Part shown: positions 35,592-54,569 of the stretch, piece by piece
How positions within the stretch are numbered: position 1 is the first letter of the stretch
How the letters are laid out: the number at the start of each line of letters is the position of its first letter
Source of the DNA: an uncultured Gemmatimonadales bacterium
Lineage (GTDB): Bacteria > Gemmatimonadota > Gemmatimonadetes > Gemmatimonadales > GWC2-71-9
Length of the DNA stretch: 64,000 nucleotides
Direction: 5' to 3'
NCBI GenBank assembly: GCA_963748815.1
Contig: CAVVKJ010000019.1
Span: 25,921 to 89,920, forward strand
Notes under the pieces: generated by a model
What the model was told of the DNA's origin: nothing
Database searches by the model: none
The model's input: only the letters and a program-made list of their open reading frames with translations
Position numbers and translations under genes: made by a program

Positions 35592-36193
35592 GCAATCAGC
35601 GAACCCTGCTGTCACACCCCCATGCGATTGTTCGGGTCAACCGTACCACCAACCCGAGCGTGCAATGGACTACCCGTCGAACCCACTAACTCTCTTTCCT
35701 CCTGCAATCCATGAGCTGCTCGACCGGCAATGCAAGTCCTGGAAGCCACACCACGCCGCACTTGTTGTTGTCTTTCGTGTATGGCAACTCGGTGCAGCGC
35801 TTCGGTGGAACGTGGCGCCTCCTCCCTGTTCTACGGATTGGTGCGACTCGAATTGGCGTGTGAGCTCCGACCGACTTGGCTGGCTGGCCGAAGGCAGGGA
35901 GTACGTCCGTCGGAGTTCGGGCCTCACTTCATCAGCCTCGTGGCGGGGTGGAGTTGGGCCGGCCGGAACACGTTCCTCATCGGGGGTTTCCGCCTGCCGC
36001 ATCGTACACGCCTCAAGCGGCGGTACCGCGGAGTCTCCGCATGCTGAGCGGGCAATCCAGCGCCGCGCAGCGTGAATTTCCGACAGTGTTCGCGGCTTCG
36101 CGCGAAGAGGGAACGGTCACCTTCTGGAAGGCGCGCGCGGCCAAGTGCGCGTGCCCCCGGTGTCGGAGCATGAAGTCATCCTGGAACCGGGTC

Positions 36194-37550: not shown

Positions 37551-37578
37551 GAGGCGGCACCACCTTCTCAACGGAGAA

Positions 37579-38806
37579 TCAGCCACGCTTCACCTGACAC
37601 TTCGCCAACTCTACCAGCACCCCGTGACACCCGATCCCCACAATCTGCACACGCCAACGCTGGGCCACCGTCCGCGGGACCCGGGCGGCGTGCGAGCCGG
37701 GGTTCCGGTCCTTCGCCAAGGCGTCGAGAATGGGGGGCAGCTGCGTCGCGTACCACCCGCCGTTCTCCAGCCGCTTCCCCAGGAATTGCGCCCGCTCACG
37801 GTCCCCGCCGATCACGCGCGCAAGCTGCCCAAGCGACAGCGAGCCGCTCCGGGCCAAGTCCTCCGTCGAGCCATCGATGTTCGCCAGCCGGATCGCCTCC
37901 GGCGCGTCTTGCAACGCACAGAGAAGGATCCGGTTCACCTGTACTTCGACGGCCTTGGCCAACGGCCCCATCGACGCCTGAAAGTCGAAGGCGTCATCCT
38001 CCCGATGATCGCGGAACACCTTCTCCCCGGTCGCGACAAACGTCCGGGCAACCGGATTCGAGGGCCTGCCACGCGGCGTCCCCGAGGAGATTCTCGCGAA
38101 GCTCCCGCTGCATCAGGCCCGTCCCCCCCGATTCCGCGTCAAATTCCGCCCAATACCGCCCCTCCGCGAGGGGCGCGTAGGCCGCCTCGTCGAAGTACCG
38201 ATGGCCATCGGGCCGGATCACCACCAGCGGCAAGTCGACCATTCCTCCGTAGAGGGAAACGGGACGGTCGTGGTAGTGGACATTCCGGAGATGACGAACC
38301 TCCTCGACGACGGAAAGGGTGTCGTCGAGCACGAGTCGTCGGATGTCACGAAGCCTGAACCAGCAGTCGCACCGGAGATCATCCTCGCGGTAGTACACGG
38401 GCAGGTGGTCCGGATCGACGCTGGCAACGTCCTCGAAGGTGATCTCGTCCACGTCCGCCACATAGAGCGAACGGTAGTCGGTCAGGTACAGCTGCAATTC
38501 GCGGGTCTGGTCCTGGCGCAACTCCTCCGCCATCCGCTTCAGGTCGTCGCCGTGCGCCATTCCCTGCTGCCGGTTTTCGGACCGAATCTTTCCCCACCAG
38601 ACGTACACGTCGTCGTCGTCGGACTTGCGCTCTCTCCAGGCCTGGATCCGTGACAACAGGATGCCCAGGTGCGCCTCCATCGCATTCGACGCATAGGCCG
38701 GATTCCAGACACCGAGGAGATGCTGAACGGGAGGGTTCACGGGGCCGCCGTTGGGGTGGGTGGGAGGTGCCGGGCTCAAGATGTGGGTACCTCCGGGAGG
38801 GCACAA
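37579..38806 (-). CDS. two-domain hypothetical protein: unknown N-terminal domain + C-terminal HEPN-like domain; one frameshift near 38,060
   Basis: ORF 37994-38806 ('VYVWWGKIRSENRQ', 'LYLTDYRSLYVADV', 'DRPVSLYGGMVDLPLVV') joins ORF 37579-38019 as '..AAWQALES/NPVARTFVATGEKVFRDH..'. C-terminal 'LAKDRNPGSHAARV' fits the HEPN R-x4-H motif. Start uncertain (TTG 38806, GTG 38740, ATG 38680). Confidence 0.6.
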
Positions 38807-39073
38807 CCGGCCGTGGGCTCAGCCGGGGGGAAGCACAAGATGAATGCGAGAGAATTGCCGGTATTCCTCAACATTGCACGAATAGTTGGCAAAAACGCCA
38901 AAAAGCAGCGGTTTCCACGGCTTTTTGCTCATTTCTTGCTCGACATTCCCACAATTGCCTACTGCCGGGACGCACCGGCTCGCACCCAGACACACCCGGA
39001 CGAGAGTACTGACGCCCCTGTCACGCCCCCACCCTACCTTGGGACTCTGACAATTGTACCTCAAGCAGGATAG
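38807..39073. promoter_or_regulatory. AT-rich divergent control region between the HEPN operon and the nuclease-helicase operon
   Basis: G+C is locally much lower (for example 'CAACATTGCACGAATAGTTGGCAAAAACGCCAAAAAGC', 'CTTTTTGCTCATTTCTTGCTCGACATT'). It shares words with the AT-rich modules at 29.1, 29.8 and 63.4 kb. No promoter consensus verified. Confidence 0.3.
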
Positions 39074-39373
39074 CTCCGGGGAACCTCAACGCCACAGCAC
39101 CCCCGCCGTGAGCAGATCATCGGCAGGTTCCACACGGTCGAGGAGCTGATGAATCTCCCCCAGGCCGCCCCGGTCAAGCTCTCGATGGGCAGGGAGGAAT
39201 TGTTCGAACTGCAGGCCATGAACATCGAGATCCACCAGGCCAACCAGATGGAGTGTGCTCCGGAGGATGCCCGTCAGAACGCGATCCTCACGGAGCGGCG
39301 GCAGCTGGGGATCGACTGGCTGAGCCAGCGGGTGGAGGATAGCTTGAGGAGAAGTCGGCGCAGGCGACCCTGA
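39074..39373 (+). CDS. hypothetical small protein, paralogue of 32580-32945
   Basis: The frame is open from 39074. The first ATG (39149) falls inside the conserved 'FHTVEELMNLP' block, so the true start is upstream/non-canonical or lost. Confidence 0.45.
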   Translation, partial: LRGTSTPQHPRREQIIGRFHTVEELMNLPQAAPVKLSMGREELFELQAMNIEIHQANQMECAPEDARQNAILTERRQLGIDWLSQRVEDSLRRSRRRRP

Positions 39374-39392
39374 TGCATTTCCGGAGCCCCAT

Positions 39393-42300
39393 GGAACAGC
39401 CACAACTCGCCTGGATTGCCAACTTCATCTGGGGCATCGCGGACGATAGTCGAGCGGTGGGGGGATTGTCGGCGGAGAGTATCGATTGAGTCACATTTCT
39501 CTCAACGCAGTCGTCAAGAGCGACCTGCAAGAGATTGTGCTGAGGATCGTTAGGCTCCGGGATGAGCCGAGTGACCTTCAGGCGCGCCTCCTCGGGCTTC
39601 GTCAGCAGTTTGAGCGGGCCATTCGACTTCTCGTTCTTGATCCAACGAGGGCATTCCCCGATCACTTCGAGCGCCTCTGCTACGTTTCGCAAAAGCACTC
39701 GCTCTCGACAGATCTCGTTACCCAGCTGCAGCGGACTCGAATCAGGCTCAACAAGATCGTCCATGAGGTTAGTGCGAATCCGAGTGAACAAGACGTTTCC
39801 GAAACCGCGGCCGTGTTGCTCGCCCTGCTCCACGTGTTCGGACTCGCCCCAACGCCAGCACGAACAGCTCCACCACCACCTCCCACCACGCAACTCGCTC
39901 CGCCGGCTCTTCCTCGCACAAGGATCCGGCCGGCCGAGGGAACTACCCCATCGCCGCCGTCGATCGGCGTCACTGGACGAGAAAGCGTCCCTGTCTCAAC
40001 CACGCCTCCAACTGTTGGCGGACGGACAGCTGTCGCATTCGCGCGAGTCTTCGTCCTGGAGGTGGGTACTGCAGGCAAAGAGGGCCACAAGAGCCTCCGC
40101 TGCAGACACGAAGACTTTGACGACCTTCTCACGGTCGAGCTACACATCCCGTGGGCCGATACTGATGTGGTGTCCTTCTCAACGCTTGCGTTGCACACAG
40201 TAGAGCAGGTGTCGCCATTGCTCTGGCGCACCACCGCCGAGAGTTTCGTTGTTCTGGAACCGGACGTACTTGTGCAGGCTACCGACATCGCGACCTGTTT
40301 CCAATCGAGCCCTCCCAGCCACCTCCTCTATGTCTCCTCGCTGCTGAACTCGGTGCAACAAACCCGCCCGATGGCACAGGGCATCGTCGCCAATACCACC
40401 TTCAACATGCTCCTTGCTGAGAACGATGGTACGCCTCCGGAGTCTCTTCTCGCTCGGGCATGTGATGCTCACGCTGAGGCACTTGGCAGCTTACCGGGCG
40501 AGGTGGATGCCGATGTCCGACGCGCCATCCGCACGGACCACCTCGAGGCCCTGACTGAGATCGCGGCACGGCTTCGCAAGCATCACATTACGGTCGAGCC
40601 GGCTCTATTCACATCTCAGTTTGGTTTGCAGGGCCGCCCCGACGTCCTTGTTGAGCGCGATCAGTCATCCAGCTACGTGGTGGACTTGAAGACCGGGAAG
40701 CCCCCGAGAGAAGATGCGGACCCGGAATGGCCGGCGATGGAAGGCGTGAGAGGCTCCTACGCCAAGGAGGCTGCCCAGTTGGTGTGTTACGACCTTCTGC
40801 TGGCCGGTCGAGGTCCCACTGGGCCAACGCATTATCTCTTCTACTCGGCAGCTGGCGCCAAAGCCGGGGTGCGGGCTATTCACGTCACGTACGAAGCGCG
40901 GCGTGATGTCATCCGAGCACGTAATCGCATCATCGCGGCTGAGCGGACAGTGCTGCTGCCCCCATCTGCCGAGACCGCCTCGCTGACTATGGCGGGACTG
41001 CCGCCGAGACTCCCGCCCTACGCCCGGGAGTCTCTCTGTTGGCTGTGGCTCGTTACCGAGCCATCTGTAGTCCCGACGCTCCACGTACGGACACCTTTGT
41101 CGGCGACCAGGTGCGTTCGGTCATGCAGCAGACGTGGCGCGCACGACTGGGAGGGGGCACGCAGTATGAAGGATCTGGTTTTGCCTCCCTCTGGCGTGAG
41201 CGTGACCTGATCCTCAAAGCGGCAAGTTTGGGCGTGCTGGCGTTTCTTCGCTACGCAAGAATGGAAACGGTGGACAGAAGACAGCTCTATCATTTCACGC
41301 TCGACGCATCGAAAAGCCAACCCTTTATCACTGCTGAACTTCGCAAAGACGAGCCGATCGTCCTGTACCCTCACCTGGATCGCTACGTCGACCATTGAAC
41401 GGCCCGATCATTAAGGGTCGACTGAAGCTCGTCGAGCTTGGTGCCGCCGAGCCGCGGGTTGTAGTGGAGTGTTACAGCGCCACCGCCGAGGCGCTACTTC
41501 CGCGGCACGCACATTGGGCTATTGAGCGCGACTATCTCGAGTCGAGCGGCCGCGCCGCATTTCCGGGGCTCGCCCGGCTGCTGTCCATCGATCCCAATCG
41601 GTTGTCCCTCCTTCTCGGTGACCGAGCTCCCCTAGGCCCAGCGCCGACACTCGCCTCGACAACCACCGGTGCAGGGACCACGCTTCAACAGATCGCCGTC
41701 GCTGCCGCCGAGTCCCAAGAGTATTTCCTGAATTCAAGGCCCACCCGGAACGGGAAAGACGAGCACGTTACTCCCAGCCATCGTCAAGCTTGTGCTTGAT
41801 GAGCGACGCACACCGGTGCTACTCCTCGCCGATGAGTAATCGAGCTGTGGACGAGATGCGGGCGGCAATGAGCAGGCATCATTTCGTGCTTGATCCTTTC
41901 CGTGAGGATCGGCTGAGCGCGCCGGAATCGCCAAGCGCACCCGGTGGGGCCAGTATTGTCTTTCGAGAACGATTGGCAAAGACCGAGGTGTACGCCATGA
42001 CGGTTGCCCAGGCGCAGAAGCGCCATGCTTGGCTGGAGGCGATGGCGTTTGACACCGTAGTCGTGGACGAGGCCTCGCAGTTGCTCGACAGCCAGTTACG
42101 GGGGATCCTCAGCACCGCAACACGATTTGTGCTGATTGGCGATCAGCGACAGTTGCCACCTATCCAGCCCGCTGTGGCGGATGCTGATGGTGAGTCCGAG
42201 GGTGGCGAGGTCAAGCCTTCGACATTTGAGCGCTTGCTGGACAAGATGCACTAGCGAGCGGGTGGGACTACGCGTATGGCATGCTCGAAGAGCAGTGGCG

Positions 42301-42956
42301 CATGCACGAAGAGATCCAGGCGTTTCCAAGCGCAGCCTGCTATGGGGGGCGGCTCCGCATCGGTCAGCCAGTGAGGCAGCGTGCCAGAGAGTGGGTGCGG
42401 TTGAGGCCATGGGCAGACAGCACCCGTAGGGACCCTATTCGCCCACCGCGTGGCGTTCGTGTCGGTCCCGGATGATCATGCACAGGAGGTACGGTCAAAC
42501 TACCGTGAAGTGGAAGTCATCGGTCGTGTAATCGACGAGCTTTGTAGTGAGCTGGGCATCACTCCTGGCTCCATGCCGCAAGCCGCTGATGCTACTCTTG
42601 GCGTAATTGCGCCATTTCGAGCCCAGGTAGCTGCCATCAGCCGTCGCCTTCATGAATGGCGGCACTGGGTGAAGGTGGATACCGTGGAGCGCTTTCAGGG
42701 GAGCGAACGCGATGTCATGGTGATCTCCATGACAGCTGACAATGCGCAGGAGCGGACGATGGCCCAGAGTATGTCCGCGGACGGCCTCATTGATCGGAAG
42801 CTGAACGTCGCCATCACGCGTGCCAGAGAACATTTGATCGTCGTTGGGCACGAACCGACCATGGCAGGTGGGGCATTCACGGCGCAGTTCTTGGAGCATG
42901 TGAGACAGTATGGGACGTTTGTGACCGCCAAGGAGCTTGGCCTCAATGGCGGATGA
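39393..42956 (+). pseudogene. very large Cas4/Dna2-like PD-(D/E)XK nuclease + SF1B (Dna2/NAM7, AAA_11/AAA_12) helicase with an N-terminal DUF4145/HEPN-like domain; at least 6 frame changes
   Basis: Pieces: 39393-39486 'MEQPQLAWIANFIWGIADD'. 39486-41210 ('TRIRLNKIVHE', Pro-rich linker, 'GLQGRPDVLVE..YVVDLKTGK..QLVCYDLLL'). 41039-41398. 41395-41799 (Walker A 'GPPGTGKT' out of frame at about 41,740). 41790-42254 ('SNRAVDEM', 'VVVDEASQ', 'LIGDQRQLPP'). 42281-42475 ('EEQWRMHEEI'). 42450-42956 ('VDTVERFQGSERDVMVIS', 'NVAITRAREHLIVVG'). Confidence 0.8.
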
Positions 42957-43308
42957 TATGCTGGTGGCATTCGTGGCGGGGTTACGCCGGCAACTCCTGG
43001 ATAGCCCCAAGGGCTTCAGTGATCCAGCGGACCGAGCGAGCAGGCCGCTCAAAGGTTGGTGGAGCGAATACTTCGATGAACAGGACTCGGACGGACTGCT
43101 ACTGGAATTGGCTAGCCGTGGAGAGACTTTGTCGATGGTCTTGTACCGCGTGGCAGAAGCTCACCTGCGCAACGGTCGCGTTCTGGGCACTACGGAACGG
43201 CCACTGTCGTGTGAGTACGAACAACTGGGAGTAGGCGTTGGTAGATACTGCTCGCGAGCGGTGCGGGCGTGCCTGCAGCGCGAGCTTGGAGTTGTAGAAC
43301 CTCAATAG
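42946..43308 (+). CDS. hypothetical protein
   Basis: ATG 42946 overlaps the helicase stop by 11 nt. 120 aa. No motif recognised. Confidence 0.4.
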   Translation: MADDMLVAFVAGLRRQLLDSPKGFSDPADRASRPLKGWWSEYFDEQDSDGLLLELASRGETLSMVLYRVAEAHLRNGRVLGTTERPLSCEYEQLGVGVGRYCSRAVRACLQRELGVVEPQ

Positions 43309-43487
43309 AGGCCGCGACCCCAGCACACAGACTCCACGACCGTACTCGAAGTGGAAGGAATTCCTAGCGGGTCACTGGTGGCCGCACCACCGGGGCGGCC
43401 CACACGCCACCTATCCGCGTCCACTGATGTCATGCCTGATGTGGGGACCTCTATGCCTAGGGGACCCACCGACCCCGGCGAGATCTC

Positions 43488-44168
43488 CTACGCCATGAAC
43501 CGCTGATCACCCCGGGCCCAACCCGTATATAGCCGGGTCACGCCGAGTGTGGCCAACGGCACGACGGAGCCTGGCTCGGCATCCGCACCGAAGAGCTTCA
43601 GGAATGCCGCAAAGTCCGAGTAACCTGCATCCTGTGTGCTGAACGAGTGAACGAGCAGAATGGCCAGGGGCGCATGGTAGCGATGAGCTGCCAACACTGC
43701 CGATGCCGCCCGGTGAAATAGCTGGTAGCGCAGGGTAGGATCCTGGTCTTCGTCCAAGCCGAGCGTGGCGCAGAGGAAGCTCCAGCGGACTTGTTTCCCG
43801 TTCGATGCGTCTTTCCGCCACTCGCCTAACGTGGGCCCAAACGTCTCAGCGACTTTCCCCTCGACCGCCATGGCAAAGGCGCCGCCCTGCGCTCGGCCCA
43901 AAACCATAACATCGGTCTGCGATGGCCGATCGCCTCCTGGGAGGGCCGTCTCATACTCCGGGACAGCGAGATATGGAGCAGGGTTCGAGAGGGCACCGTC
44001 TGGCGCGGATCCAAGGGCAGCGGAAACTTCAGGCGGTAGGCCATCCGCCGCCTCCCAGCATAGCGCCAACGCCTTCGCGGAATACCCGGTCTTCCAGTGT
44101 TTCTCGGGGTCGGCCAGGTATGGCTTCCAGTCGTCAGGTCCAACGGTGCATGCGAGGATTCTCGACAT
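43488..44168 (-). CDS. conserved hypothetical protein (DUF6946-like, from memory), last gene of the restriction island
   Basis: 'HWKTGYSAKALALCWE', 'LAVPEYETALPGGDRPSQTDVMVLG', 'AVEGKVAETFGP', 'LRYQLFHRAASAVL', 'ILLVHSFS'. The D..E-x-K spacing is compatible with a PD-(D/E)XK core. Confidence 0.6.
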   Translation of the reverse strand: MSRILACTVGPDDWKPYLADPEKHWKTGYSAKALALCWEAADGLPPEVSAALGSAPDGALSNPAPYLAVPEYETALPGGDRPSQTDVMVLGRAQGGAFAMAVEGKVAETFGPTLGEWRKDASNGKQVRWSFLCATLGLDEDQDPTLRYQLFHRAASAVLAAHRYHAPLAILLVHSFSTQDAGYSDFAAFLKLFGADAEPGSVVPLATLGVTRLYTGWARGDQRFMA

Positions 44169-44212
44169 ATCTGCCCCTGGTGAAAGTCACATGCGACGAC
44201 CCGATCGACTAC

Positions 44213-45166
44213 TTAAGGCTTGAGTTCCTGCATGAGCCCTGACTGCCAACCTTCATACCTTCCATCGCGCACCTTTCCGAAAAAGCTCGTGTAGTCTTCC
44301 GGGGACAGGAAATAGAAATGGTAGCGCCACTCTTCGTTCGTATCCTTCAGCCGTTGGTTCAGTGTCTCGAAGTGCTTCACGCCATCTCGGAGCTTTGCCT
44401 TGTTGCGGTTGGAATCATCTCCCTCCGCCTTGATCTCGACGACAAGAATATCATGCCCACCACTGACCCTTAAGAAGAAGTCCGGATTGAAGTTCTCGTT
44501 TGAAACATGCGTCTTTGCGGCCTTGGCTGGTTTATAGGAATACGGGAATGAATAGCCACCAGTGTTAGGCATCTTTACAAAGGCATCAAACAACTTGCCG
44601 TTCTCAAACAGGAGGTCAGAGAACTTGCGCTCTGGCTCATGACTGGCGTAGTGGACGTTCCAGGGCGACTTGAACGCGCTGACGTCCACTTGATGAATCC
44701 GACCTCCGACGGCCTTCGCCTGGTCAGAGGCATCATCTCCGTATTCCGCGCACATTCTTACAAACCTCTGATACTGTTCCCAGAGATGGACTTCGTGGCC
44801 GGTGAACGGTTTGGTGTCTCCATCCACAGCGTAAAGCACACCATCTTCCTTGAGCATGCTTTCGGAGAATGACTGCCGCGCTAAGGCACTCAGGTCCACC
44901 GGGACGAGCTCCCGCCCCGTCTGGCTCATTCGTGGATGCTGCTTGCCCAATTCCCGAAACATCGGGCCGAAGCCCTGCTGAAGGCGCAGCAAGTTTTCCT
45001 TGCTTAAGAACGTTGCGTCTTGCCCCGCGGCTCTGAGCCTTGCCACAATGAACTCGTGCAGCCGCTTCTTCGGCCAGGCTGCGCCCAGCCTAGCGTCCTT
45101 TTCTCGCAGGAAGAGCCGCAACAGTCTCGCAGCATCTTCGATGCTCCAGTATATCGTCATGTTCAA
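44213..45166 (-). CDS. res: type III restriction enzyme Res, C-terminal endonuclease part
   Basis: 'NPDFFLRVSGGHDILVVEIKAEGDD' is a PD-(D/E)XK motif. It overlaps the helicase ORF by 77 nt in another frame, and the frame is open only from a TGA just upstream of the ATG. Confidence 0.7.
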   Translation of the reverse strand: MNMTIYWSIEDAARLLRLFLREKDARLGAAWPKKRLHEFIVARLRAAGQDATFLSKENLLRLQQGFGPMFRELGKQHPRMSQTGRELVPVDLSALARQSFSESMLKEDGVLYAVDGDTKPFTGHEVHLWEQYQRFVRMCAEYGDDASDQAKAVGGRIHQVDVSAFKSPWNVHYASHEPERKFSDLLFENGKLFDAFVKMPNTGGYSFPYSYKPAKAAKTHVSNENFNPDFFLRVSGGHDILVVEIKAEGDDSNRNKAKLRDGVKHFETLNQRLKDTNEEWRYHFYFLSPEDYTSFFGKVRDGRYEGWQSGLMQELKP

Positions 45167-46799
45167 TCTCGACCGCCAGCCTCCCAGTCACGGAGAAGGT
45201 GGAGTACTCCGTCGTTGCGCGGTCCTGGGGCATGAATGTCACATCCGGCTCCTTCGCCCGTTCCCGCTTCGTCTCCACAGTCGTCTGCTCCGGCTCATAA
45301 CGCAGATTGTGTAACGGAAAGAGATACTTGCTGCGACGTTGGTCGAAACCCCACGTAAGGGTATTCTCCACCTCGAGCACTTCCTTGAGCAGATTCCCAA
45401 CTTCCTCAGACCATGCTTCGTGGTTGTTGATGGTGACCAAGGGCTGCGCGCTCAGGCCTGGCGGCACCCGCAAACCACGTCCAAGTACCTGTGCGATCAA
45501 CAATTTGGAGGAAAATGCCCGTGATTCGTGCGGCACGATTTGAAAGATATTCTTGACGTCCCAGCCTTCGGTAAGCATGGAGACTGAAACGATCCACTCC
45601 ACAGGGCTTCCCGGCTCGTCGACCTGCTTGAGCATGGCCAGGTTCTCCATCCGTCGCTTTTCCGGAGAATCCTTGGCATCACGGGGGCAATGGGCTGCCT
45701 CCACCCTCGCCTTCCCGGCACCAGACGGCACACCAGACGTCACCCATATCGCCTTGTTGGTCGCTTCCTCACGCGTGATCTTCTCCTTCTTCATGAGGAA
45801 GTCCACCAGTTCCCTCCAGACCTCCACACACCTGGCAATCTCCTGGGTGACGACAATCGACATCGGCTTCACTAGCTTGCCGTAGTCCTTTTGATTCTGC
45901 TGATGAATAGCGTATGTCTTGCGCCAATCATGATTGGTGTAGGTGTCTTCCAGTTTGTAGTTTGGCTTCTTGACGACCTTGTCGGCGATGGCCTGCTTCA
46001 AGCCATAACGAAAAACGACATCGGGGAAGTAGTCGTCGACTATATATGGTGTGCCGGAAACGTTCACGATCTGTCGGAAGCTGAACTCCTCGTGCTGCAA
46101 GAACTTCATCCATTCCTTCAAACCCTTGTCTGGCGGGCTGAACAGGTGATGCGCCTCGTCGTTCAATACCAGCGTACGCCCACCGCGCCCCCGGAGGCTA
46201 TCTCGGATAGACGAGCCAGTATTCTCGTACACCGCGTGGATATTTTCCACGCAAATGTCGCCTGCATGAATGGTCTCGTTGCCGTGCTTGATGGCGGGAA
46301 TGGCCACCGCGGCGCCAAGTTCTTGCATGATGCCGGAGAGCTCGCCAGTCCCTGCCAGCGAAGTGAACTTCTCCAACAGCCCCTCTTCAATGGTGAGCGA
46401 CGGGCACAGGACCAAGACCCGGTCCACGAGCCCCTCGGCCAGGGCTATGGCCGCCAGAGCATACATCACAAAGCTCTTGCCAGATCCGGTTGCAAGGTCC
46501 AGCGACACCGACTTCCGGTCCCGGAGGGGCATCTTGCTGAGGTAAGCATCAATGCTCTCATGCCGTTGCTGAATCGGCTCGCGCTTGTTCCAATTCTCCC
46601 GTGCAAGCTGCTCGAGGTTCGAATACTTGTCTGAGACAAGGAATCGAAGGACCTCACGGACAGCGTCGCGCTGGAATGCATATTGATCGGCGCAGAGCAT
46701 GTTTAGGAAGGCGTCGTACTTGTGGATCACTGCCTCTGTGGAGTCGCGGCTATCGTCCACCAATAGGACCTGATCGGCAATGCGGAATTGGAGGCTCAT
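45090..46799 (-). CDS. res: type III restriction enzyme Res, SF2 helicase/translocase part
   Basis: ATG 46799. 'DLATGSGKSFV' (Walker A), 'LVLNDEAHHLF' (DEAH), 'VSGTPY', 'MLTEGWDVKNIF', 'QVLGRGLR'. Confidence 0.85.
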   Translation of the reverse strand: MSLQFRIADQVLLVDDSRDSTEAVIHKYDAFLNMLCADQYAFQRDAVREVLRFLVSDKYSNLEQLARENWNKREPIQQRHESIDAYLSKMPLRDRKSVSLDLATGSGKSFVMYALAAIALAEGLVDRVLVLCPSLTIEEGLLEKFTSLAGTGELSGIMQELGAAVAIPAIKHGNETIHAGDICVENIHAVYENTGSSIRDSLRGRGGRTLVLNDEAHHLFSPPDKGLKEWMKFLQHEEFSFRQIVNVSGTPYIVDDYFPDVVFRYGLKQAIADKVVKKPNYKLEDTYTNHDWRKTYAIHQQNQKDYGKLVKPMSIVVTQEIARCVEVWRELVDFLMKKEKITREEATNKAIWVTSGVPSGAGKARVEAAHCPRDAKDSPEKRRMENLAMLKQVDEPGSPVEWIVSVSMLTEGWDVKNIFQIVPHESRAFSSKLLIAQVLGRGLRVPPGLSAQPLVTINNHEAWSEEVGNLLKEVLEVENTLTWGFDQRRSKYLFPLHNLRYEPEQTTVETKRERAKEPDVTFMPQDRATTEYSTFSVTGRLAVEIEHDDILEHRRCCETVAALPARKGR

Positions 46800-46836
46800 G
46801 TTGCCCTACGCCCCTTTCGTGCCCCCGCCTTCTTCT

Positions 46837-48417
46837 TCACGGTCTTTGTAGGCTTGCGACGCGGCGCGCCCTCAAAGTCCCCTCTTTCAGCAGCAGCGCC
46901 TTCTCATTTCCATACCGGTCGCAGAGAATCATCATCATCTGCTTCCCGCTGAAGTCCGCCTCCGCGACTCGCAGTTGCAGCCGCTGCGCGCCTTCCAGCC
47001 CACCAGCTGCCTTGACTATGTCCTCTCCCCACAGCACGTGGCTCAACCGAAAGACGTTTCCGTCGTAGTGGGTATCGACCATGGCCATGGAAAATGTCTC
47101 GAAGTTGCGGAAATCCTCGGGGTCGGTCGCCAGCGTCTGGGCCCGGAATTCCGTGATCTCCAGGACAAAGTCAGCAAACAACTCACCAGGTAGTGCTTCT
47201 TTCTTTGCCTTCCAGGCCACTTGAGGTTGCGAGATGAAGTCGAAGCCTACAGCATCGATCACCTCATTCACAGCGGCTTCACTTGTCGGTTGCTTTAGTG
47301 CGGCTGGCATGCCCTTCTCGATCAGCCGGAGCAGTACCGAGACTGGAACCTTGAGGAAGACATACGTCGTGTCGCCCCTTGTCACCTCGTCTTCCGCAAA
47401 GTCCATCGATATCACGGGAGCAATGACATAGAATCGCTCAGCCGTCTTGCCGCGCAGGGTGCGGTGGAGGTCATCCACGTAGGCGTGGTCTAGCGTGAGC
47501 GCCGGAAAGTCCGGATAGTTCCACAGCAGCACCGAATGGGTGCCGATGTACCCATCGAGCGCCAACCCATAGCGCGTGTGGGGATGCTCCCTGACGCCAA
47601 AGAGCTTCAGCACGAATGGCCTGTAGTCCACCCACGGCAGCCCTTTGATGGTCTCCATGTCATAGACACCTGCCCGGTAGAGCGCGAACTCCTTCGCTGG
47701 CAACGGCTTGTCCTTGGCGGCCTTGTCCTTCGGCTCAATCACCGAGAGCCTGAATTCCACTCCACCAACCACGATGCGTTTGGCACCTGGCCCGTTCTCA
47801 GGTTCCGTCAACCGGTTCGAGGGGATCCGCATTTTCTCAGCTGGGCAGACCAATGACAATGACGCTCCCTGCTTCACCAAGTTGTGTGTTCCGACGAGGG
47901 TAGCCAAGTCCTTGAGCAGCTCCATCGTGACCTCGCACTCGCCTTTTCGCGCCTTGTCAGTGATGAGAAGGACGCTTGGCGCGCCTTTCAGATGGCCCGC
48001 CCAATCCTCCACTCTCTCGGGCTCGTTGCGGTCGTCCTTCCTCGATGTCCCGATGCTCGAGGTGAGTGAGAACAGGCGCTTCTGTGTGGTATAGATGGCC
48101 AACTTACCGCAATCCATGGCGATCCAGCGCCGCCCCAGCTTCTCCGCGACAGCTGGCGTGGTTCCGCTGCCGGCAAAGCAGTCGAGGACGATATCCCCTT
48201 CGTTTGATGAGGCACAGATGATGCGTTCTGCGAGCTGTTCAGGCTTCTGGGTTGGATAAGCGATGCGCTCTGCGGCTTGGCTGTTGACAGCCTTAATGTC
48301 GGTCCAGATCGACTGGATGGCAGCTCCTTTCTGCTCACTGAGGTAGGCTTTCAAGCGCGGCCACCCTCCCTTCTTTGCTGGCCAATAGATGCGCCCTTCC
48401 TTGTCAAGCCGATCCAA
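46837..48417 (-). CDS. mod: type III DNA methyltransferase Mod, C-terminal part (reading actually continues in frame from 48558)
   Basis: 'YPTQKPEQLAERII', 'VLDCFAGSGTT' (motif I), then about 380 aa of target-recognition/other region. Same frame as ORF 48559-49290. Confidence 0.85.
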   Translation of the reverse strand: MDRLDKEGRIYWPAKKGGWPRLKAYLSEQKGAAIQSIWTDIKAVNSQAAERIAYPTQKPEQLAERIICASSNEGDIVLDCFAGSGTTPAVAEKLGRRWIAMDCGKLAIYTTQKRLFSLTSSIGTSRKDDRNEPERVEDWAGHLKGAPSVLLITDKARKGECEVTMELLKDLATLVGTHNLVKQGASLSLVCPAEKMRIPSNRLTEPENGPGAKRIVVGGVEFRLSVIEPKDKAAKDKPLPAKEFALYRAGVYDMETIKGLPWVDYRPFVLKLFGVREHPHTRYGLALDGYIGTHSVLLWNYPDFPALTLDHAYVDDLHRTLRGKTAERFYVIAPVISMDFAEDEVTRGDTTYVFLKVPVSVLLRLIEKGMPAALKQPTSEAAVNEVIDAVGFDFISQPQVAWKAKKEALPGELFADFVLEITEFRAQTLATDPEDFRNFETFSMAMVDTHYDGNVFRLSHVLWGEDIVKAAGGLEGAQRLQLRVAEADFSGKQMMMILCDRYGNEKALLLKEGTLRARRVASLQRP

Positions 48418-48558
48418 CTCCTTATTTGCAAACTTCCAGTGATTGCCTTTCGCTCCCGGGATGAACCCACGCCAAGGGCTTCCCGATGAGCCATTTCGGA
48501 GCCCAGCCTGAGTCGCGTCAATCGTTGCGAAGCGGCGTCCGTCAGCTTCACTGTAAGT

Positions 48559-49290
48559 CTAGTAACGATCGATGTAGCTTGGGTCGTGGGCCAAGAACTG
48601 TTCGTTAAAGCGGAAGTTCGTGGCTTTGGAGTAGAACAGCAGAACATCGTGAATGTGATTGAATGTATGCGAGTCACTGCGGGCAGATGTCCGCTTCCAA
48701 ATGATCTCGTTCTGGAAATTGTCTTCCCCGAACGTCTCGTCCAATACAGCCTTCAAGTAGTGACTCTTCTTCGTATCCAGGTGCACATAGATGCTACCGT
48801 CGTCGGCAAGCAGTTCGCGGAGCAGAATGAGACGGCGCCTGAGGAATTCGATGAACTGTGCGCCGAGGACCTTGTCCCGGTAGGCCTTCTCCTTGTCCTT
48901 CATGAAGTCCTGCCGCGTGGCAAACGGCGGGTCGATATAGATGAGCTTGATCTTGCCGCGTGTGCCGAGGCGGTTCGGCCCCTGTTGGTCGGCGAGCAGC
49001 TCCCGCAAAGCAAGGAGATTGTCCCCCCATACCAGCAGATTGCGCCAGCCGTCGCCATGCGGCCTCTCAGCACAAAAGGACCGCTCCAACTGCCACGGCG
49101 CTGCCGGCGTCTGGGCCAGCACCTCCTCGCGGGACAGCTTCCCCTCATAGACCAGCCGGTACTCCTTGCCGATTTGAGAGGCGCGCCCGACGTCAGGAAA
49201 GAGGCGCTGTCGCCACTGTTCGGATAAGGGAGTCCCCGACTTGAGTAGGTTGTTGAGGTGCTGGCGCTCGGCGTCGTTCAAAGGCTTCAT
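48559..49290 (-). CDS. mod: type III DNA methyltransferase Mod, N-terminal part ending at an in-frame TAG
   Basis: ATG 49290. 'LIYIDPPFATRQDF' (motif IV DPPF, beta-class order). 'IYVHLD', 'NEIIWKR'. TAG at 48559-48561. Confidence 0.85.
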   Translation of the reverse strand: MKPLNDAERQHLNNLLKSGTPLSEQWRQRLFPDVGRASQIGKEYRLVYEGKLSREEVLAQTPAAPWQLERSFCAERPHGDGWRNLLVWGDNLLALRELLADQQGPNRLGTRGKIKLIYIDPPFATRQDFMKDKEKAYRDKVLGAQFIEFLRRRLILLRELLADDGSIYVHLDTKKSHYLKAVLDETFGEDNFQNEIIWKRTSARSDSHTFNHIHDVLLFYSKATNFRFNEQFLAHDPSYIDRY

Positions 49291-49340
49291 GGATAGTGGG
49301 TCCAGTGGTTGTTCTAGGAGTGGGGCGACCGTGGAACCGA

Positions 49341-51137
49341 CTACAACTTTCTGAAGTACTTCTTGATGCGCGCTGCCATTAACCTCCGACGTTCGACCAG
49401 GAAGCTATCATAATCCTCGGCCAAGCCATCGAATATCCCCTCCGGAATGCAGTGCTGCTCCAGGTTCTTGCGAAGGTCTTCCCTGTCGTCTAACCCTCCC
49501 AACTTGCGCTTGCCTCCAACGCATTGCTTCTCAACAGCACGGAAGTAGTCTGATGGGGGACGCGCACCAATCGCAATGTTGATTTCACTCTGCGTCACTG
49601 CAAAGTTCGCGATTTGGTTATACTTGCCGCGCTGCAATCCCTGGGCTTTTAAGTGCTTGCGTGGAAATATATGGTGCACATCGGAATGGTTCTCGATGAG
49701 ATCCTGCACGGTGATATCACGGGACAGGAACCCCAGGTCCCCCAGTTTCACTTGCGCTGCCTGGAACACCAGGAAGAAGGGGCTCCTTGTTGAGGAGGTC
49801 TCCATCTGCTGAGGGAGGAGGACATTCCAGAAGTCATCCGTGAGCGAGGAAGTCACGGTGGTGTCAACGTGCTGCTTGAGACCACGCTCGTCGATCTGCC
49901 GAATATCGGAGTCAAAGGCGGATTCCGGCGTCCCGCTGTAGCGGCCGGTCAGCATCGACATCACAAACCATTGTTTCACAAGGCGCTCGATCTCGGCGGA
50001 CTCCACCTTGTCTGCCCGACCACGCAGATAAATGATGTACGCAAAGTTGATGGCGTTTTGGCTGCCGATGAGGTCCGGGCTCACGAAACCGGCAGATCGC
50101 AGGATCATGATGAGACGCTCAAAGTGCGTCTTGTTGATGAAATTGTGCACGCCGGTGCGCAGTTTAGTGAACGATTCCTCCGCGATGGCCTCCTCGTACT
50201 GCTTCGTTTCGAAATTGCGTCCGGAGAGCAGGGCCACGAGGTCTTGAAGCTTCCCCCGCTTGAACTCGCTCGTGAAGGCCACCCTGAGCATGTCCGTGTA
50301 TGACGGGTCGTAAATGTCGTCGTTGGTGTCCTTCAGCCACCCAATTTTGGGGAAGAACTCTGATTTGGCAAACACAGGGTCACCGTTCTTGATCTTGCTA
50401 TAGAACTCGGGCGCCACTGCCAGGTGACAGAAGTAGTCAATCGCCTTGCGCAGCAGATTCCCGCCATAGGTGTCGTTGGCAGCAATTTTGGACATCGCGA
50501 AGTCGGCCTGACTCAGTTCCTTGCCGGCCGAGTTTACTCGAATGAAAATCTCTGTGACCGTTTCGATGTCGAGGTCGTCAGATAGATCGATGATGCCGAC
50601 ATGGTTATTGATGATCTTGCGAAGTGTCTCGAGCGTGGTGAAGACCGTGTCTTCGCTCATCCCGGGATTGTCCGCGGCATACGCCTTGGTGATCTGGAGA
50701 AGTTTCGCATCCGGCGCGAAGACTGCTGAGACGTCCGGAATCCAGGCCGAGTCCCGCTGAATGGCGGGATTGGACACCTCGAACAGCTCATTGCCCGGAT
50801 GGAAAGCGATCCGGATCCGCGCCGTCTCGTAATCCTTGTTGACCACTTCATAACCGAGGAGTGCCGCCATCAGGGCGGTCACCCTCTGCTGGCCATCGAT
50901 GAGGATGCGCTTGCCTGCTGACGGACTCCCGTCCTTGAGACGTACGGTGGGATTACGCCATGCGATGAGATATCCTACGGGGTATCCGCGGTAGAGCGAG
51001 TCCAACAGACCCCGAACCTGAGTCGCATCCCAGACAAATGGGCGTTGAATTTCTGGGATCGCGATCTCGCCAGACTTGACCCAAGTGAGCAGCGTGTCAA
51101 TTGGGTGCGGAGTGACTGTATATCGCTGGGTTGCCAT
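49341..51137 (-). CDS. GmrSD-like type IV restriction endonuclease (DUF262 + DUF1524)
   Basis: ATG 51137 after AAAGGGA (alternative GTG 51146). '[10 protein letters not shown]', '[11 protein letters not shown]' (DUF262 DGQQR). C-terminal '[11 protein letters not shown]...[10 protein letters not shown]' (His-Me/DUF1524). Confidence 0.85.
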
Positions 51138-51257
51138 CGGTTTCACGTCCCTTTGTCGCGGTATTCAATGAAGGATTGTGACGCGCTGTCCTACCGTCAT
51201 GTGCACATCCGCTCAGGCATGGGTGCCCGCATCAGGCGGTCGCCGCGCAAGCCAATG

Positions 51258-53249
51258 CTACTCGAACGGGTATTGCTCTGGTACGTAATCGTACCCGCTG
51301 CACTCCCACACCCACTGTCGGCATTGCCGAGTTAGGGTGAGCCTGTCAGTGGGGTCTGGAATGAAGGCAATCTCTAAGTGGCTCTGTGTCTGCCGCACCA
51401 CGGCCAAATGGTACTTCGCCCCCATCTGGCGTGCGACGGCTTCCTCATTCGTCGTCAGGGTAAACGACTGGCCAACATAGTCGATGAGCTTTACCTCGAT
51501 GGCCATGCTTTCCCCCTGGTCTGTCCTCCCTTCTATGTCGTAACCGATATTCTCTCTGCTCACATCCTTCACTTGCCAGCCCCGAGAAGCAAGAATGTCG
51601 AGCACTTGCTGCTCGGCGCTCCGCCATTTCTTGAGGCTCACTGGACCTGCAGTAGACCTAGTGGTTTGTTGGCCAACGGCACCGACCTTCCTCGGCGGAC
51701 CCCACTCGCCGAGCAAACGGATTGCAGATGCCTCGTTGCTCATGGCGGTGAGAAGGCGAACGACCTCTCCGCTACTGCGCACCTTCTCCCTGACTTGGTC
51801 GACAAAGGTGGATGCGAGTGGCGTGCCGTGCCGCAGTGCAGTCTCCAAGGACTCAGGTCGAATGCCCGTCGGCCACAACTTCCAAGCACTCTTAAGATTC
51901 CCAGGCGCGATCTGTCTGGTAGATAGAAGGGTCGTCAAGTGCGCGACCACTTCCGCGGCGCCAGACTCAGAGGGAGCTAGGGTGACCAAAGCAGGTGCGA
52001 TGTTCTGAAAGTTTGCCTCCCTCGCACCAAGAAACCTCAGGAAGACCCTCAATCCTTCCGTGGCTTCGAGGTTGCGCGGGACTACTCTTAGACCCGCTTT
52101 GGTGGCCACAGCATAGAAATCGACCGCATTGAGCCAAGTCGGCCGCAAGTAGAGGTCATCCCAATGGTTTGCGGCATATCGTTGAATTGCAGAGTACAAC
52201 TCCGTGCGAAAGGACCGACGCTGGAGGCCAGCCATTCGGGGGTCGGCAATCGGGACCAGAGCGGCAAGCAGGCGGATGTCGCCAGAACTGAATACGCACT
52301 CGCGAACCAGGTCCACGATGAATGCCGCTGCCACGTTGATAGCTCCGGACGTCCGATCGTCCAACACCACCCGAGTGCGCGAAGGGTCGGTGCTGATGTC
52401 ACCATTCAGCTTGAAGGAAAACCCTGAAGCTTCCAACGTTGGGAGGAAGGCATGAACGACAGCCCTCCGTTCATCCAGTCGAACGATGCCCGTCGGATCG
52501 TGGACAAATCCCAAAGCAATGTCATCTCTCTCCATGATCGTCCATTGGAAAGATCCTTCCACGCTCGCCAAGCGCAGCGATCGAACCCCAGGTGCTTGAT
52601 TCTCCCGACGAATGGTGACGAGGGTGTCGATATCCCCACGCAGTTCCATCTGTCGCACGTTGCGCAGGAATAGAAGCCCAGAAGGGTCGAAGGCCGCGAA
52701 TTCTGCCTCGATTCCAGTGGCGATCAACCCGGCAAATACGAAAACGGTATTGAAGCCGTCGGCATTAAGTTTGTCGATTTCCTTGCCGAAGGGTACGCGG
52801 TCTGATGGCAGAAGCGGATGGGGAATGCGAATCAGCGGAACCCGGCTCGCTTCTGGGATGTCAAGTGCGGTACGTTCTCGTGAAAACGTGGCTGCAAGCT
52901 CTCCACTCAAGACGTGCACGGTGTGAGCGAATCCTACGACTGACTTGAAGCCGATACCGCGGAATCCAATGCAAACACCTCTTTCCTTCAAAGAGGACGC
53001 GCTGCGGCACAGGCTTTGGAAGTCATTCAGAGTGAATGAGTTGCCGTCGTTTGCTACCAGCAGGAAACCATCCGTCCGTCGAACACTGAACCTTGCCGCC
53101 CCAGCATCGTCTGCATTCTGAAGGAGCTCGACAAACGAACGCGCGTCGTAGCTCTCAGCAATGTACTGCTCCAGTCCGGCAAGATCCGAAAGCAGGCCGG
53201 GAGACTGGCGGGCCTCACTCAGTAGGCTGTCCCTGACAGTTGTGAGCAT
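51258..53249 (-). CDS. GHKL (sacsin/Hsp90-like) ATPase fused to a C-terminal DUF3883 restriction-endonuclease-like domain
   Basis: 'FVELLQNADDAGA' (N-box ExxxNAxD), 'VANDGNSF', 'GFRGIGFKSV'. C-terminal 'WRSAEQQVLDILASRGWQVKDVS..IGYDIEG...MAIEVKLI..FTLTTNEEAVA..YHLAVV'. Confidence 0.8.
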   Translation of the reverse strand: MLTTVRDSLLSEARQSPGLLSDLAGLEQYIAESYDARSFVELLQNADDAGAARFSVRRTDGFLLVANDGNSFTLNDFQSLCRSASSLKERGVCIGFRGIGFKSVVGFAHTVHVLSGELAATFSRERTALDIPEASRVPLIRIPHPLLPSDRVPFGKEIDKLNADGFNTVFVFAGLIATGIEAEFAAFDPSGLLFLRNVRQMELRGDIDTLVTIRRENQAPGVRSLRLASVEGSFQWTIMERDDIALGFVHDPTGIVRLDERRAVVHAFLPTLEASGFSFKLNGDISTDPSRTRVVLDDRTSGAINVAAAFIVDLVRECVFSSGDIRLLAALVPIADPRMAGLQRRSFRTELYSAIQRYAANHWDDLYLRPTWLNAVDFYAVATKAGLRVVPRNLEATEGLRVFLRFLGAREANFQNIAPALVTLAPSESGAAEVVAHLTTLLSTRQIAPGNLKSAWKLWPTGIRPESLETALRHGTPLASTFVDQVREKVRSSGEVVRLLTAMSNEASAIRLLGEWGPPRKVGAVGQQTTRSTAGPVSLKKWRSAEQQVLDILASRGWQVKDVSRENIGYDIEGRTDQGESMAIEVKLIDYVGQSFTLTTNEEAVARQMGAKYHLAVVRQTQSHLEIAFIPDPTDRLTLTRQCRQWVWECSGYDYVPEQYPFE

Positions 53250-53254
53250 GGATG

Positions 53255-54022
53255 TCAGTTCGGTTCGGGATAGATGCGAATGCGATGTACGGCTGAGATT
53301 TCAAGGTGGTTTATCCATATTTCGAACGTAGAGAAGAGGTTAAAACTCTCCCTATAGAACGAGTCGCTATTGATCGCCAACACACGGCCATGCGGGCCGT
53401 AGACCACCGCCTTCAAAACAGTGTCCTGCGTAAGCGTGGCGCCGTCTCTAGAATAGATTTCGCCAAGAATTGTGAGTTGGTTTGACTCTACGGATACCCG
53501 CACCGAGAGACCCTCTAGTCGAATACCGAGTTGCTCCTCAAGTACTTCTAGTCGTTCGATATGTTCGAGCAATCGGTCTGCTAATTGGCTTTCGGATAGT
53601 GGGAGGTCCTCGACTTGCGTCATTGCAAGCTTCCAACCCTCATCGGCAGGAAGATCGGGGTCGATACAGTCGAACCGCATTGCGATCTTCTTGCCAGAAT
53701 GCGGCACGCTAGCATGGCAGTACAGCGCGTCGCCGATGCAGATCTCCTGAAGGTGGCGCCGATAGAAGACCAGCCCACACTTCCTACTGGCATTGGGAAG
53801 GATCGTTTCCGATTCGACCAGGTAGCCCGTCAACCAAATGCTCTGAGTGAGTTGCTCGCCAGCGGCGGTGACGTACGTAGCCTTGGAAACCTCTATTCCC
53901 CTAGGCACGGAAGCGAAATTTCTAATCGCGAGGTAGAAGAGGTAGGCCTCTTCGTCGTTGTTCATCTCCGTTTCCTCAATCGAGGAGATCTGGAATTGGA
54001 AACCGACGAGATCAGATGTCAT
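53255..54022 (-). CDS. hypothetical protein, no recognisable domain; first gene of the island
   Basis: 255 aa. Its stop TGA (53255-53257) lies 5 nt before the ATG of the GHKL gene. Two beta-rich halves are joined by the helical 'SESQLADRLLEHIERLEVLEEQLGIRLE'. A+T-rich codon usage like the rest of the island. Confidence 0.6.
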   Translation of the reverse strand: MTSDLVGFQFQISSIEETEMNNDEEAYLFYLAIRNFASVPRGIEVSKATYVTAAGEQLTQSIWLTGYLVESETILPNASRKCGLVFYRRHLQEICIGDALYCHASVPHSGKKIAMRFDCIDPDLPADEGWKLAMTQVEDLPLSESQLADRLLEHIERLEVLEEQLGIRLEGLSVRVSVESNQLTILGEIYSRDGATLTQDTVLKAVVYGPHGRVLAINSDSFYRESFNLFSTFEIWINHLEISAVHRIRIYPEPN

Positions 54023-54305
54023 ACCTCACACCCTGGTGCGAGCATAGTATCGGTATCACGTACCATGAAGTTGCCTCGACTGCCGACTAGACATCCAATG
54101 GAAGGACAAGATGTGGAGATGTTGACGTCAGGACTCACCTAACCATGAATGCGATCGGACCGACACGGTGGACCAAGGGTTTGTGCTTCAGCTTGGACCG
54201 AACTTCCAAATGTACCCACTGGATATACCCGCGATAGGGCAGTGTCCTGCCGTGGCGAGCGAGCTTTGCGGGGCCAGACTGCTCCCGCCTCGGCGCTTGG
54301 CCTGC

Positions 54306-54569
54306 CTACCTCGGCACCACCCTTCGCTCCCCGAACACCTCGGCGTCCGCACCGACGCACTTGTAGTCGAGCACCTCTGGAAGATCGCCGGCGTGCAGGT
54401 AGCTGGCGCCCCCGACCTGGCCGGTGGAGGAGTAGATCTCGAAGTTGACCTCGCCGTCGAGCACGAGATGGATCTGCGCCAGGTTGCTCTTCTCGCCACG
54501 GGCCACGTTGACCACCACCGCCTCGATCCGCTTCCCGATCAGATGCTGCCAGCCACCCTTGATGGACAT
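54306..54569 (-). CDS. small hypothetical protein
   Basis: ATG 54569 ('MSIKGGWQHLIGKRIEAVVVN..'). High-G+C codon usage. Downstream of the WYL genes. Confidence 0.45.
   Translation of the reverse strand: MSIKGGWQHLIGKRIEAVVVNVARGEKSNLAQIHLVLDGEVNFEIYSSTGQVGGASYLHAGDLPEVLDYKCVGADAEVFGERRVVPR

Follow-up and report, generated by a model that had tools for sequence, protein, structure and literature searches.

The closest described counterparts of the locus reported here are the core defence hotspots cDHS1 and cDHS2 of Pseudomonas aeruginosa (PMC10250203) and islands of Escherichia coli (PMC10121019), in which variable, low-G+C clusters of several defence systems lie between core genes. For the core defence hotspots, a transfer via the conserved flanks by homologous recombination has been proposed (PMC10250203). 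A similar cluster is found in a stretch of 64,000 nucleotides (nt) from an uncultured Gemmatimonadales bacterium (GenBank assembly GCA_963748815.1, contig CAVVKJ010000019.1, positions 25,921 to 89,920), hereafter called the window, whose own coordinates are used throughout. As in the described hotspots, the cargo varies between relatives and genes of mobile elements are not obvious. A first-pass annotation of the window had marked its positions 43,310-54,150 as one restriction and defence island. The defence cluster was borne out by a foreign composition, a patchy presence, relatives of the cassettes in unrelated genomes and real lesions; the single unit was not, since the block holds at least four independent cassettes. 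Our analysis indicates that the block very likely belongs to a composite, horizontally acquired defence island, with one dead restriction-modification (R-M) cassette and a recently exchanged core of 10.3 kb.

The island would have been assembled at a chromosomal hotspot between core genes, namely adnAB, a pafBC-like WYL pair and the small gene orf87, and lies directly downstream of these. Its four cassettes would be the gene g255 with a GHKL-DUF3883 gene, a GmrSD/BrxU-like gene, a Mod-Res pair and a DUF6946 gene. The Mod-Res cassette was inserted between GmrSD and DUF6946, and is now inactivated by a nonsense codon in mod and a +1 frameshift in res. Cassettes seem to be gained and lost at gene boundaries. 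The foreign DNA could have arrived by homologous recombination after transduction, transformation or conjugation. Besides the GmrSD-like enzyme, the Mod-Res pair and the TmtA-like GHKL-nuclease, the cluster has a nuclease-helicase gene as its neighbour, with Mokosh-like PADLOC matches.

The block stands out by its composition. Its G+C content is 0.568, compared with 0.687 (standard deviation 0.016, minimum 0.645) in 36 windows of 1 kb taken outside the variable region, and its own 1-kb maximum is 0.621. The 1-kb profile runs at 0.55-0.58 between 44 and 54 kb and at 0.69-0.72 to the right of 54.6 kb. On this side the predicted step is sharp, with 100-nt values changing from 0.51-0.54 to 0.63-0.67 at 54.1-54.3 kb. 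The second step, expected at 43.3 kb, does not exist, since the low G+C extends further to the left (0.627 in DUF6946, 0.62 at 34.9-43.3 kb and 0.644 at 28.5-34.9 kb) without returning to the genome level. At 43.3 kb the co-directional block ends, and so does the tract of zero divergence described below, but there is no compositional border. Codon usage, proposed as a further check, agrees: G+C at third codon positions (GC3) is 0.62-0.77 in the open reading frames (ORFs) of the block and 0.85-0.95 in neighbouring genes. All seven co-directional minus-strand ORFs were recovered with spacers of 5, 111, 50, 37 and 44 nt, and profile searches matched the domain identities named from the sequence, the product of 255 amino acids (aa) matching no family. 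A promoter and terminator scan of the block gave fewer sites than shuffled sequence and is therefore uninformative.

The strongest evidence for a recent exchange comes from contig_82359 of assembly ERZ25039527, of which 22.4 kb were aligned to the window and the differences counted. Across GHKL, GmrSD, mod, res and DUF6946 the proportion of synonymous differences (pS) is 0. To the right, it reaches 0.127 in orf87, 0.126 in pafC, 0.228 in pafB and 0.104 in adnA; to the left, it is 0.0045 in the nuclease-helicase, 0.048 in a PUA-like gene and 0.26 in a DUF429 gene. The ratio of nonsynonymous to synonymous divergence (dN/dS) is 0.04-0.21 in the flanks (0.21 in adnA), which shows that the flank differences are real evolutionary divergence. 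On its left side, the tract is bounded by a mismatch at 43,306, which is only four bases away from the start of the annotated block. An absence of substitutions between flanks with pS values of 0.10-0.23 points to a recent transfer between lineages, and we consider it highly probable that two diverged lineages have exchanged the 10.3-kb core in the very recent past. Furthermore, a Logan contig of ERR12035938 carries the PafC allele of the window itself, and orf87, g255, GHKL, GmrSD and the first part of mod are found on it as well. The junction between core and island is thus independently reproduced.

Comparison with relatives revealed a patchy distribution. By searching the PafC-like protein against species-representative genomes, four uncultured Gemmatimonadales metagenome-assembled genomes (MAGs) with 91-96% identity were retrieved (L001 to L004). 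Their names begin with 'MFD', and we take them to be long-read soil metagenomes, presumably nanopore assemblies. Common to the four is adnAB-pafBC-orf87. L001, L003 and L004 match the window in gene order over adnB, adnA, pafB, pafC and orf87, and their homology ends at the orf87 stop codon; the L001-L004 alignments end at 54,306-54,313 (blastn/tblastx). What follows in L001, L003 and L004 is 1.6-2 kb of unrelated DNA and then a VWA gene (window 34,887-34,907), so that the empty site sought by synteny was indeed found in these three. Because the VWA gene follows orf87 closely there, 34.9-54.3 kb of the window can be delimited as a variable region of 19.4 kb, whose lowest-G+C part is the annotated block. 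Foreign or variable DNA therefore reaches left to about 34.9 kb, beyond that block. In addition to the genes listed in Table 1, this region holds an AAA ATPase gene.

Alternative cargo occurs at the same site. In L002, orf87 is followed by a PLD (NgoFVII-like)-SNF2 helicase, an N6_Mtase with a Type_ISP_C specificity domain and a further helicase. The block itself sits in the same place in contig_82359, where it is identical, and in L020, where it is diverged, and is thus not fixed at this position in all relatives. L020 is a JGI contig of a more distant relative, with aa identities of 69% for adnA, 83% for pafB and 89% for pafC. Its site carries another allele of the island, with orf87, g255, GHKL and GmrSD (G+C 0.55), and here the aa identities to the window are 59%, 76% and 90% for the three island genes. 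As a side observation, every gene of the alternative cargo in L002 (11,500-20,900) is frame-broken in that assembly.

Another contig, L021, which carries the 8-nt repeat of this lineage (see below), has the order different type III Res, GmrSD, DUF6946, other genes, PUA-like and DUF429. Nucleotide identity to the window is 84.6% for GmrSD, 81% for DUF6946 and 78% for PUA-like and DUF429, and the homology breaks off close to the ends of the genes. In L021, GmrSD is separated from DUF6946 by no more than a 37-nt spacer, with no Mod-Res between them. This adjacency indicates that Mod-Res (49,340-44,170) forms a cassette nested between GmrSD and DUF6946 in the window, and that the island can exchange its head, too. 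Close relatives of every cassette are present in unrelated genomes.

The Mod-Res pair resembles type III R-M systems such as EcoP15I and EcoP1I. As in these, mod lies upstream of res, Mod is of the β-class, motif IV preceding motif I, and is variable in its central part, and Res joins a superfamily 2 (SF2) ResIII helicase to a putative D...E-x-K nuclease motif at the C-terminus. The N6_N4_Mtase profile is divided between the two mod pieces (positions 1-116 in the N-terminal, 128-217 in the C-terminal one), and PADLOC MTase_III models match. ResIII was detected in the helicase piece of res (2.4e-15). RE_endonuc is weak in the endonuclease piece (E 0.0065, 16.7 bits compared with a cut-off of 23.4), in which D...EIK was seen by eye. 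Unlike the type III enzymes, the cassette remains far below curated cut-offs (24 bits compared with 564 for NCBIfam type III Res, 78 compared with 800 for BPTD_3080), Mod has a C-terminal extension of roughly 400 aa that is conserved within the sub-family, and both genes are inactivated here.

The two lesions are an in-frame TAG in mod, which is otherwise one reading frame, and one extra base in a GG of res, placed by comparison with relatives (...L-[F/V/Y]-[D/E]-I-E-D-A...). They yield products of 243 and 519 aa for mod, and of 569 and 302 aa for res. One could argue that the lesions are harmless, either as reproducible sequencing errors or because split subunits, read-through or frameshifting keep a type III-like system active. 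Indeed, the res frameshift falls into the poorly conserved linker between helicase and nuclease, with an ATG just downstream in the new frame, the TAG lies within the variable target-recognition region of mod, and the conserved motifs downstream of both lesions are all intact. Systematic long-read errors can also recur across independent assemblies. However, the identical split ORFs are present in a Logan k-mer assembly (contig of ERR15459710) and in two long-read contigs, contig_82359 among them, and the lesions, a single TAG substitution and a GG, lie outside homopolymers and simple repeats. Moreover, the split parts catalytic motif IV of mod from motif I, which binds S-adenosylmethionine.

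Intact homologues also speak against harmless lesions. A rebuilt Res of 862 aa can be aligned without interruption, along 98% of its length, with single intact genes on plasmids of Curtobacterium, Mucilaginibacter and Limosilactobacillus, and a Mod of 610-671 aa precedes each of these. On these three plasmids, which represent three phyla, Mod-Res is an autonomous pair of two genes. Metagenome contigs added 80 Mod-Res loci with 49-83% identity and host G+C between 0.42 and 0.65, and in all 80 Res is intact at the lesion site. Where both Res parts are present, they run end to end in one frame, with the exceptions of L048 and L049, which are broken elsewhere, and eight Res ORFs translated in full gave about 860 aa and no stop. 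Similarly, both Mod parts share one frame in every metagenomic locus holding both, and nine of the ten closest Mods are stop-free, carrying K, N or H where the window has TAG. The two lesions noted in the first-pass annotation are thus real relative to intact homologues. An active system appears unlikely, and we judge both lesions to be genuine and to abolish function, which leaves the cassette dead. The only other copy of this mod/res allele, in contig_82359, differs by zero substitutions. Phase variation of mod or res was considered and rejected, as neither lesion has a homopolymer or simple repeat.

No vehicle for the transfer was detected. Pfam searches of all long ORFs and a six-frame scan of 34.9-39.5 kb revealed no integrase or transposase, and the block and region contain no plasmid or phage genes. 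No transfer RNA (tRNA) gene lies next to or within the block, the only one of the window being at 11.4 kb. A search for att-like direct repeats at 33-55 kb returned only chance-size pairs of 14-32 nt, none of which brackets the block. Hence, the absence of integrase, transposase and flanking repeats noticed at first reading was upheld. Like a classical integrative element, the region has a deviant composition and a patchy presence; unlike one, it shows no integrase, no att repeats and no tRNA gene as target. This lack of integrase, att site and mobility genes favours homologous recombination at a defence hotspot as the likeliest route of exchange. Terminal inverted repeats were also rejected: a 30-nt pair (35,610-35,639 and 54,602-54,631) reduces to the 13-nt motif TGTCACACCCCCA, and its flanks do not align. 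The motif has three exact copies, and six with up to two mismatches, where 1.4 are expected by chance.

Other histories of the block can be weighed against a composite, recently exchanged island. The seven genes could form one integrated multi-gene system, an interdependent operon, as their shared direction, spacers of 5-111 nt and the movement of the whole 10.3 kb as a single identical tract would suggest. Yet the cassettes also live apart. GHKL and its partner occur beside unrelated neighbours, Mod-Res stands alone on the three plasmids and in the 80 metagenomic loci (no other island gene is nearby in any of them), GmrSD-DUF6946 is without Mod-Res or GHKL in L021, and DUF6946 is alone in L022-L024. 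A single system is therefore very improbable. We rate as equally poor the chance that the region is old and vertically inherited, with low G+C and absences resulting from lineage-specific loss and selection. A diverged version at the same locus in the distant L020, and the recurrence of GmrSD, DUF6946, PUA-like and DUF429 as a scaffold, would fit such a history. Zero substitutions over 10.3 kb beside the diverged flanks are, however, incompatible with vertical descent. In L020, GmrSD is more similar to the window than adnA is, the GC3 values of the block are deviant, and the closest relatives of Mod-Res (82-83% identity) belong to hosts with a G+C of 0.42-0.65.

An artefact would be the least probable origin, with hardly any weight in our judgement. 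Here, a block from a plasmid, phage or other organism would have been misjoined or misbinned, and the identical tract would represent the same free element in two samples. The source is a metagenome assembly, the frame breaks vary by assembly, the block is identical in two contigs, and the relatives are long-read MAGs by name, with a nanopore origin that we only presume. Against this, the orf87-g255 junction recurs in three other assemblies (contig_82359, the Logan contig of ERR12035938 and L020, the last with a diverged island), the left side of the block runs unbroken into genes common to relatives, and plasmid or phage genes are absent. At least some frame breaks outside mod and res differ between assemblies and do look like assembly errors and not like shared biology. 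The window has the nuclease-helicase (39.5-43.0 kb) split into five or more pieces, where contig_82359 and a Logan contig have one ORF of 1155 aa; conversely, contig_82359 breaks pafB, pafC, g255 and GHKL, all of which the window keeps intact. The frame-broken genes reported elsewhere in the window are consequently broken there, but at least partly in an assembly-specific way.

Several points weigh against a recently exchanged, composite defence island as the explanation, or limit how far it can be taken. On its right side (53.6-54.1 kb) the tract has no clean border. Differences from contig_82359 start at 53,634-54,088, clustered with indels in a gene whose frame is broken in that contig, and assembly errors there may contribute. 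The end-points of recombination are therefore imprecise and may fall within the island, not in the core flanks. The base-by-base comparison is with one assembly (L007/L008), the Logan contigs giving gene calls only, and both lineages are known from metagenome contigs alone. The absence from L001, L003 and L004 applies to this site and not to the whole genomes. DUF6946 is also found in non-defence neighbourhoods, and the defence role of g255-GHKL and of DUF6946 is a putative one.

The GmrSD-like enzyme matches GmrSD_N (PF03235, DUF262; 8.2e-30) and, as best PADLOC family, HEC-05 (1.4e-35). Its sole solved relative in the Protein Data Bank (PDB) is BrxU (7p9k, 4.8e-9), over the N-terminal part. 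With GmrSD and BrxU it shares an N-terminal DUF262 with DGQQR, a C-terminal HH...N and a stand-alone gene in a defence context. It differs in its C-terminal domain, which has no Pfam match at E <= 0.01, to the DUF1524 His-Me finger nuclease or any other model, and in which 'DVHHIFP...N' was seen by eye in the translation, and HEC-05 is a candidate, not a validated system. We regard it as a type IV restriction candidate, which would cut modified phage DNA.

DUF6946 matches PF22187 with 270 bits (gathering cut-off 27), covering positions 3-213 of the 214 in the profile. This family goes back to functionally dark AlphaFold clusters described in 2023, with no function assigned (PMC10584680). Residues E71, D86 and E103-G-K105, an E...D...E-x-K pattern, are invariant in 32 sequences, and the AlphaFold2 (AF2) model has a predicted local distance difference test score (pLDDT) of 94.1. 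Foldseek returned no match with E <= 0.001; weak matches were to HamA, BamHI, PaqCI and MunI (E >= 0.08, template-modelling score about 0.2), the best of them being PD-(D/E)XK enzymes. The protein is probably a stand-alone PD-(D/E)XK nuclease.

The GHKL protein, of 663 aa, has matches to NOV_C (1.2e-12) and P_loop_sacsin (9e-19) in Pfam, and its translation shows an N-box (ELLQNADDA), a GxxGxG box and a D...E-V-K in DUF3883. In characterised modification-dependent endonucleases, DUF3883 is a catalytic PD-(D/E)XK domain (PMC6765204). A sequence search of the PDB with the protein gave no match. Its homologues, of about 665 aa, number more than 1,000 and are spread over many phyla, in mobile or defence-rich neighbourhoods (TIR and SIR2, MobC and IS200, a Mu-like prophage, Fic, NERD, HNH). 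The nearest named system is Tiamat, which is listed among the single-gene systems; its structure is of the PD-(D/E)XK type and its mechanism is unknown (bioRxiv 10.1101/2024.10.26.620412). The sacsin-type GHKL region, the N-terminal 300 aa, matches the PADLOC TmtA models (4e-41), covering only profile positions 17-333 of 1538; no full-length match to a TmtA model was obtained. The protein is short compared with the TmtA models of 1,063-1,782 positions, and comes with a small β-sandwich partner gene, of which none has been described for Tiamat. Judged by these matches, it would be Tiamat-like and not a member.

The partner, g255, has no match in Pfam, PADLOC or NCBIfam. A word-indexed search found one homologue and an exhaustive search 332, many of which are proteins of 105-130 aa covering its C-terminal domain alone. 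Directly upstream of GHKL, an ORF homologous to this domain was present in six of six other loci (E 1e-11 to 1e-17), even where no gene had been called. The AF2 model (pLDDT 95.3) consists of two β-sandwich domains joined by a helix, and its top Foldseek matches are RbmA, IL-17RA, transglutaminase barrels and tandem proteins of fibronectin type III (FnIII) or immunoglobulin (Ig) type. The partner evolves fast, as seen in L020, where g255 is the least conserved of the three island genes. PADLOC has no model with a partner protein for this pair. We infer that GHKL-DUF3883 acts as an ATP-gated nuclease, which the non-enzymatic β-sandwich partner senses for, regulates or restrains. A further step is tentative, and we would give it somewhat less than even odds: β-sandwich partner and GHKL-DUF3883 protein of ~665 aa may constitute a widespread, uncatalogued two-gene anti-phage system, distinct from Tiamat, in which the fast-evolving partner would either recognise a component of the phage or keep the nuclease in check. 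The N-terminal domain of g255 also recurs before TerB-C in large Lcl_C/InlB-repeat/ankyrin proteins (P0166, P0172, P0189 and others), and whole g255-like units are fused to an FtsK-gamma DNA-binding domain.

Table 1. Coordinates of the island genes, their core anchors and the regions compared in the window
Feature	Position	Strand	Remarks
Whole variable region, orf87 to VWA gene	34920..54305	.	1.6-2 kb of unrelated DNA instead in L001, L003, L004
PUA-like (398 aa when intact) and DUF429 genes	36774..38806	-	conserved scaffold of the variable region
PD-(D/E)XK/Dna2-like nuclease and superfamily 1 (SF1) helicase (1155 aa when intact), with small downstream ORF	39486..43308	+	broken by 7 indels in the window
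Zero-substitution tract, compared with contig_82359 of ERZ25039527	43307..53634	.	three 1-nt indels; diverged flanking genes
DUF6946, probable PD-(D/E)XK nuclease	43488..44168	-	PF22187 1.6e-80
res, SF2 helicase and putative C-terminal endonuclease, +1 frameshift at GG 45,146-45,147	44213..46799	-	ResIII
mod, β-class N6/N4 DNA methyltransferase, TAG at 48,559-48,561	46837..49290	-	N6_N4_Mtase
GmrSD/BrxU-like type IV enzyme candidate, 601 aa	49341..51146	-	GmrSD_N, PADLOC HEC-05, BrxU
Sacsin-type GHKL ATPase-DUF3883/NOV_C PD-(D/E)XK, 663 aa	51258..53249	-	Pfam, PADLOC; candidate defence effector
g255, predicted tandem β-sandwich (Ig/FnIII-like)	53255..54022	-	AF2 and Foldseek; no family match
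Core/island junction and upstream non-coding DNA of the island	54023..54305	.	sharp G+C step
orf87, small conserved gene, right-hand core anchor	54306..54569	-	called 87 aa in independent contigs

Intergenic DNA of the window harbours short tandem arrays of an 8-nt unit, (CGCGAAGR)2-4, at 12,962; 20,120; 29,352-29,375; 29,878-29,900; 31,398-31,421; 31,812-31,835; 32,454-32,485; 32,951; 35,285-35,316; 63,011-63,039; 63,316; and 63,413. The pattern GCGAAGRCGCGAAG has 23 matches, compared with 0.14 expected by chance. The arrays are also present in the Gemmatimonadales loci L002, L003, L004 and L021 and in 0 of 100 other loci. At 29.3-33.0 kb, most of them are no further than about 60 nt from where a synteny block shared with relatives ends, and none is found at 36-62 kb. 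The array at 35,285-35,316 apparently splits a plus-strand gene of about 190-200 aa (34,996-35,590), which is called as a single gene of 201 aa or more in contig_82359. G+C-rich hairpin repeats, CCCCCTCTCC...GGAGAGGGGG, occur at 54,600-54,730, just after pafC, and at 33,016-33,046, near the VWA gene; they look like intergenic elements of the repetitive extragenic palindromic (REP) type.

Some neighbouring segments have a history of their own. The PUA-like gene (window 37,588-38,790) is located elsewhere nearby in relatives (L001 16,123-17,300; L004 18,643-19,757), between segments matching window positions 29,868 and 29,746. About 120 bp are left at this position in the window, and the gene itself adjoins the island, which indicates a local rearrangement or a xenologous replacement. 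The AAA-ATPase region (35,241-36,940) aligns to contig_82359 at 88% with 77 gaps and about 0.5 kb unaligned, and is either very divergent or poorly assembled. In the nuclease-helicase, 41,000-42,420 of the plus strand carries seven single-base indels in 1.4 kb, compared with three in the adjacent 10.3 kb, and none is in a long homopolymer. Either the gene is truly decaying in this lineage, or the consensus is locally at fault. Just past adnB, at 63,000-64,000, G+C falls to 0.61 and the homology of relatives ends near 63,256-63,329. The adnAB-pafBC-orf87 block may thus have variable DNA on both sides.

Taken as a whole, the island is a feature of an ordinary kind that was sampled soon after its transfer. 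From a soil phylum without cultured members here, it offers a clear case, at the level of sequence, in which a defence island has no mobility genes of its own and is identical across 10.3 kb in two lineages whose neighbouring core genes differ. Turnover also takes place at the level of the cassettes, as a dead Mod-Res is nested between genes that are adjacent in another contig of the same lineage. Two leads emerge: the pair of partner and GHKL-DUF3883 that crosses phyla, and an invariant, nuclease-type motif in the functionally dark DUF6946. The locus bears furthermore on the question whether islands of core hotspots move by recombination (PMC10250203). Compared with the hotspots of P. aeruginosa and E. 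coli, it belongs to uncultured Gemmatimonadales, its anchors are adnAB, the pafBC-like WYL pair and orf87, and the ends of the exchanged tract may lie inside the island instead of in the core flanks. It differs from them, above all, in the direct sequence evidence for a very recent exchange, namely 0 substitutions over 10.3 kb.

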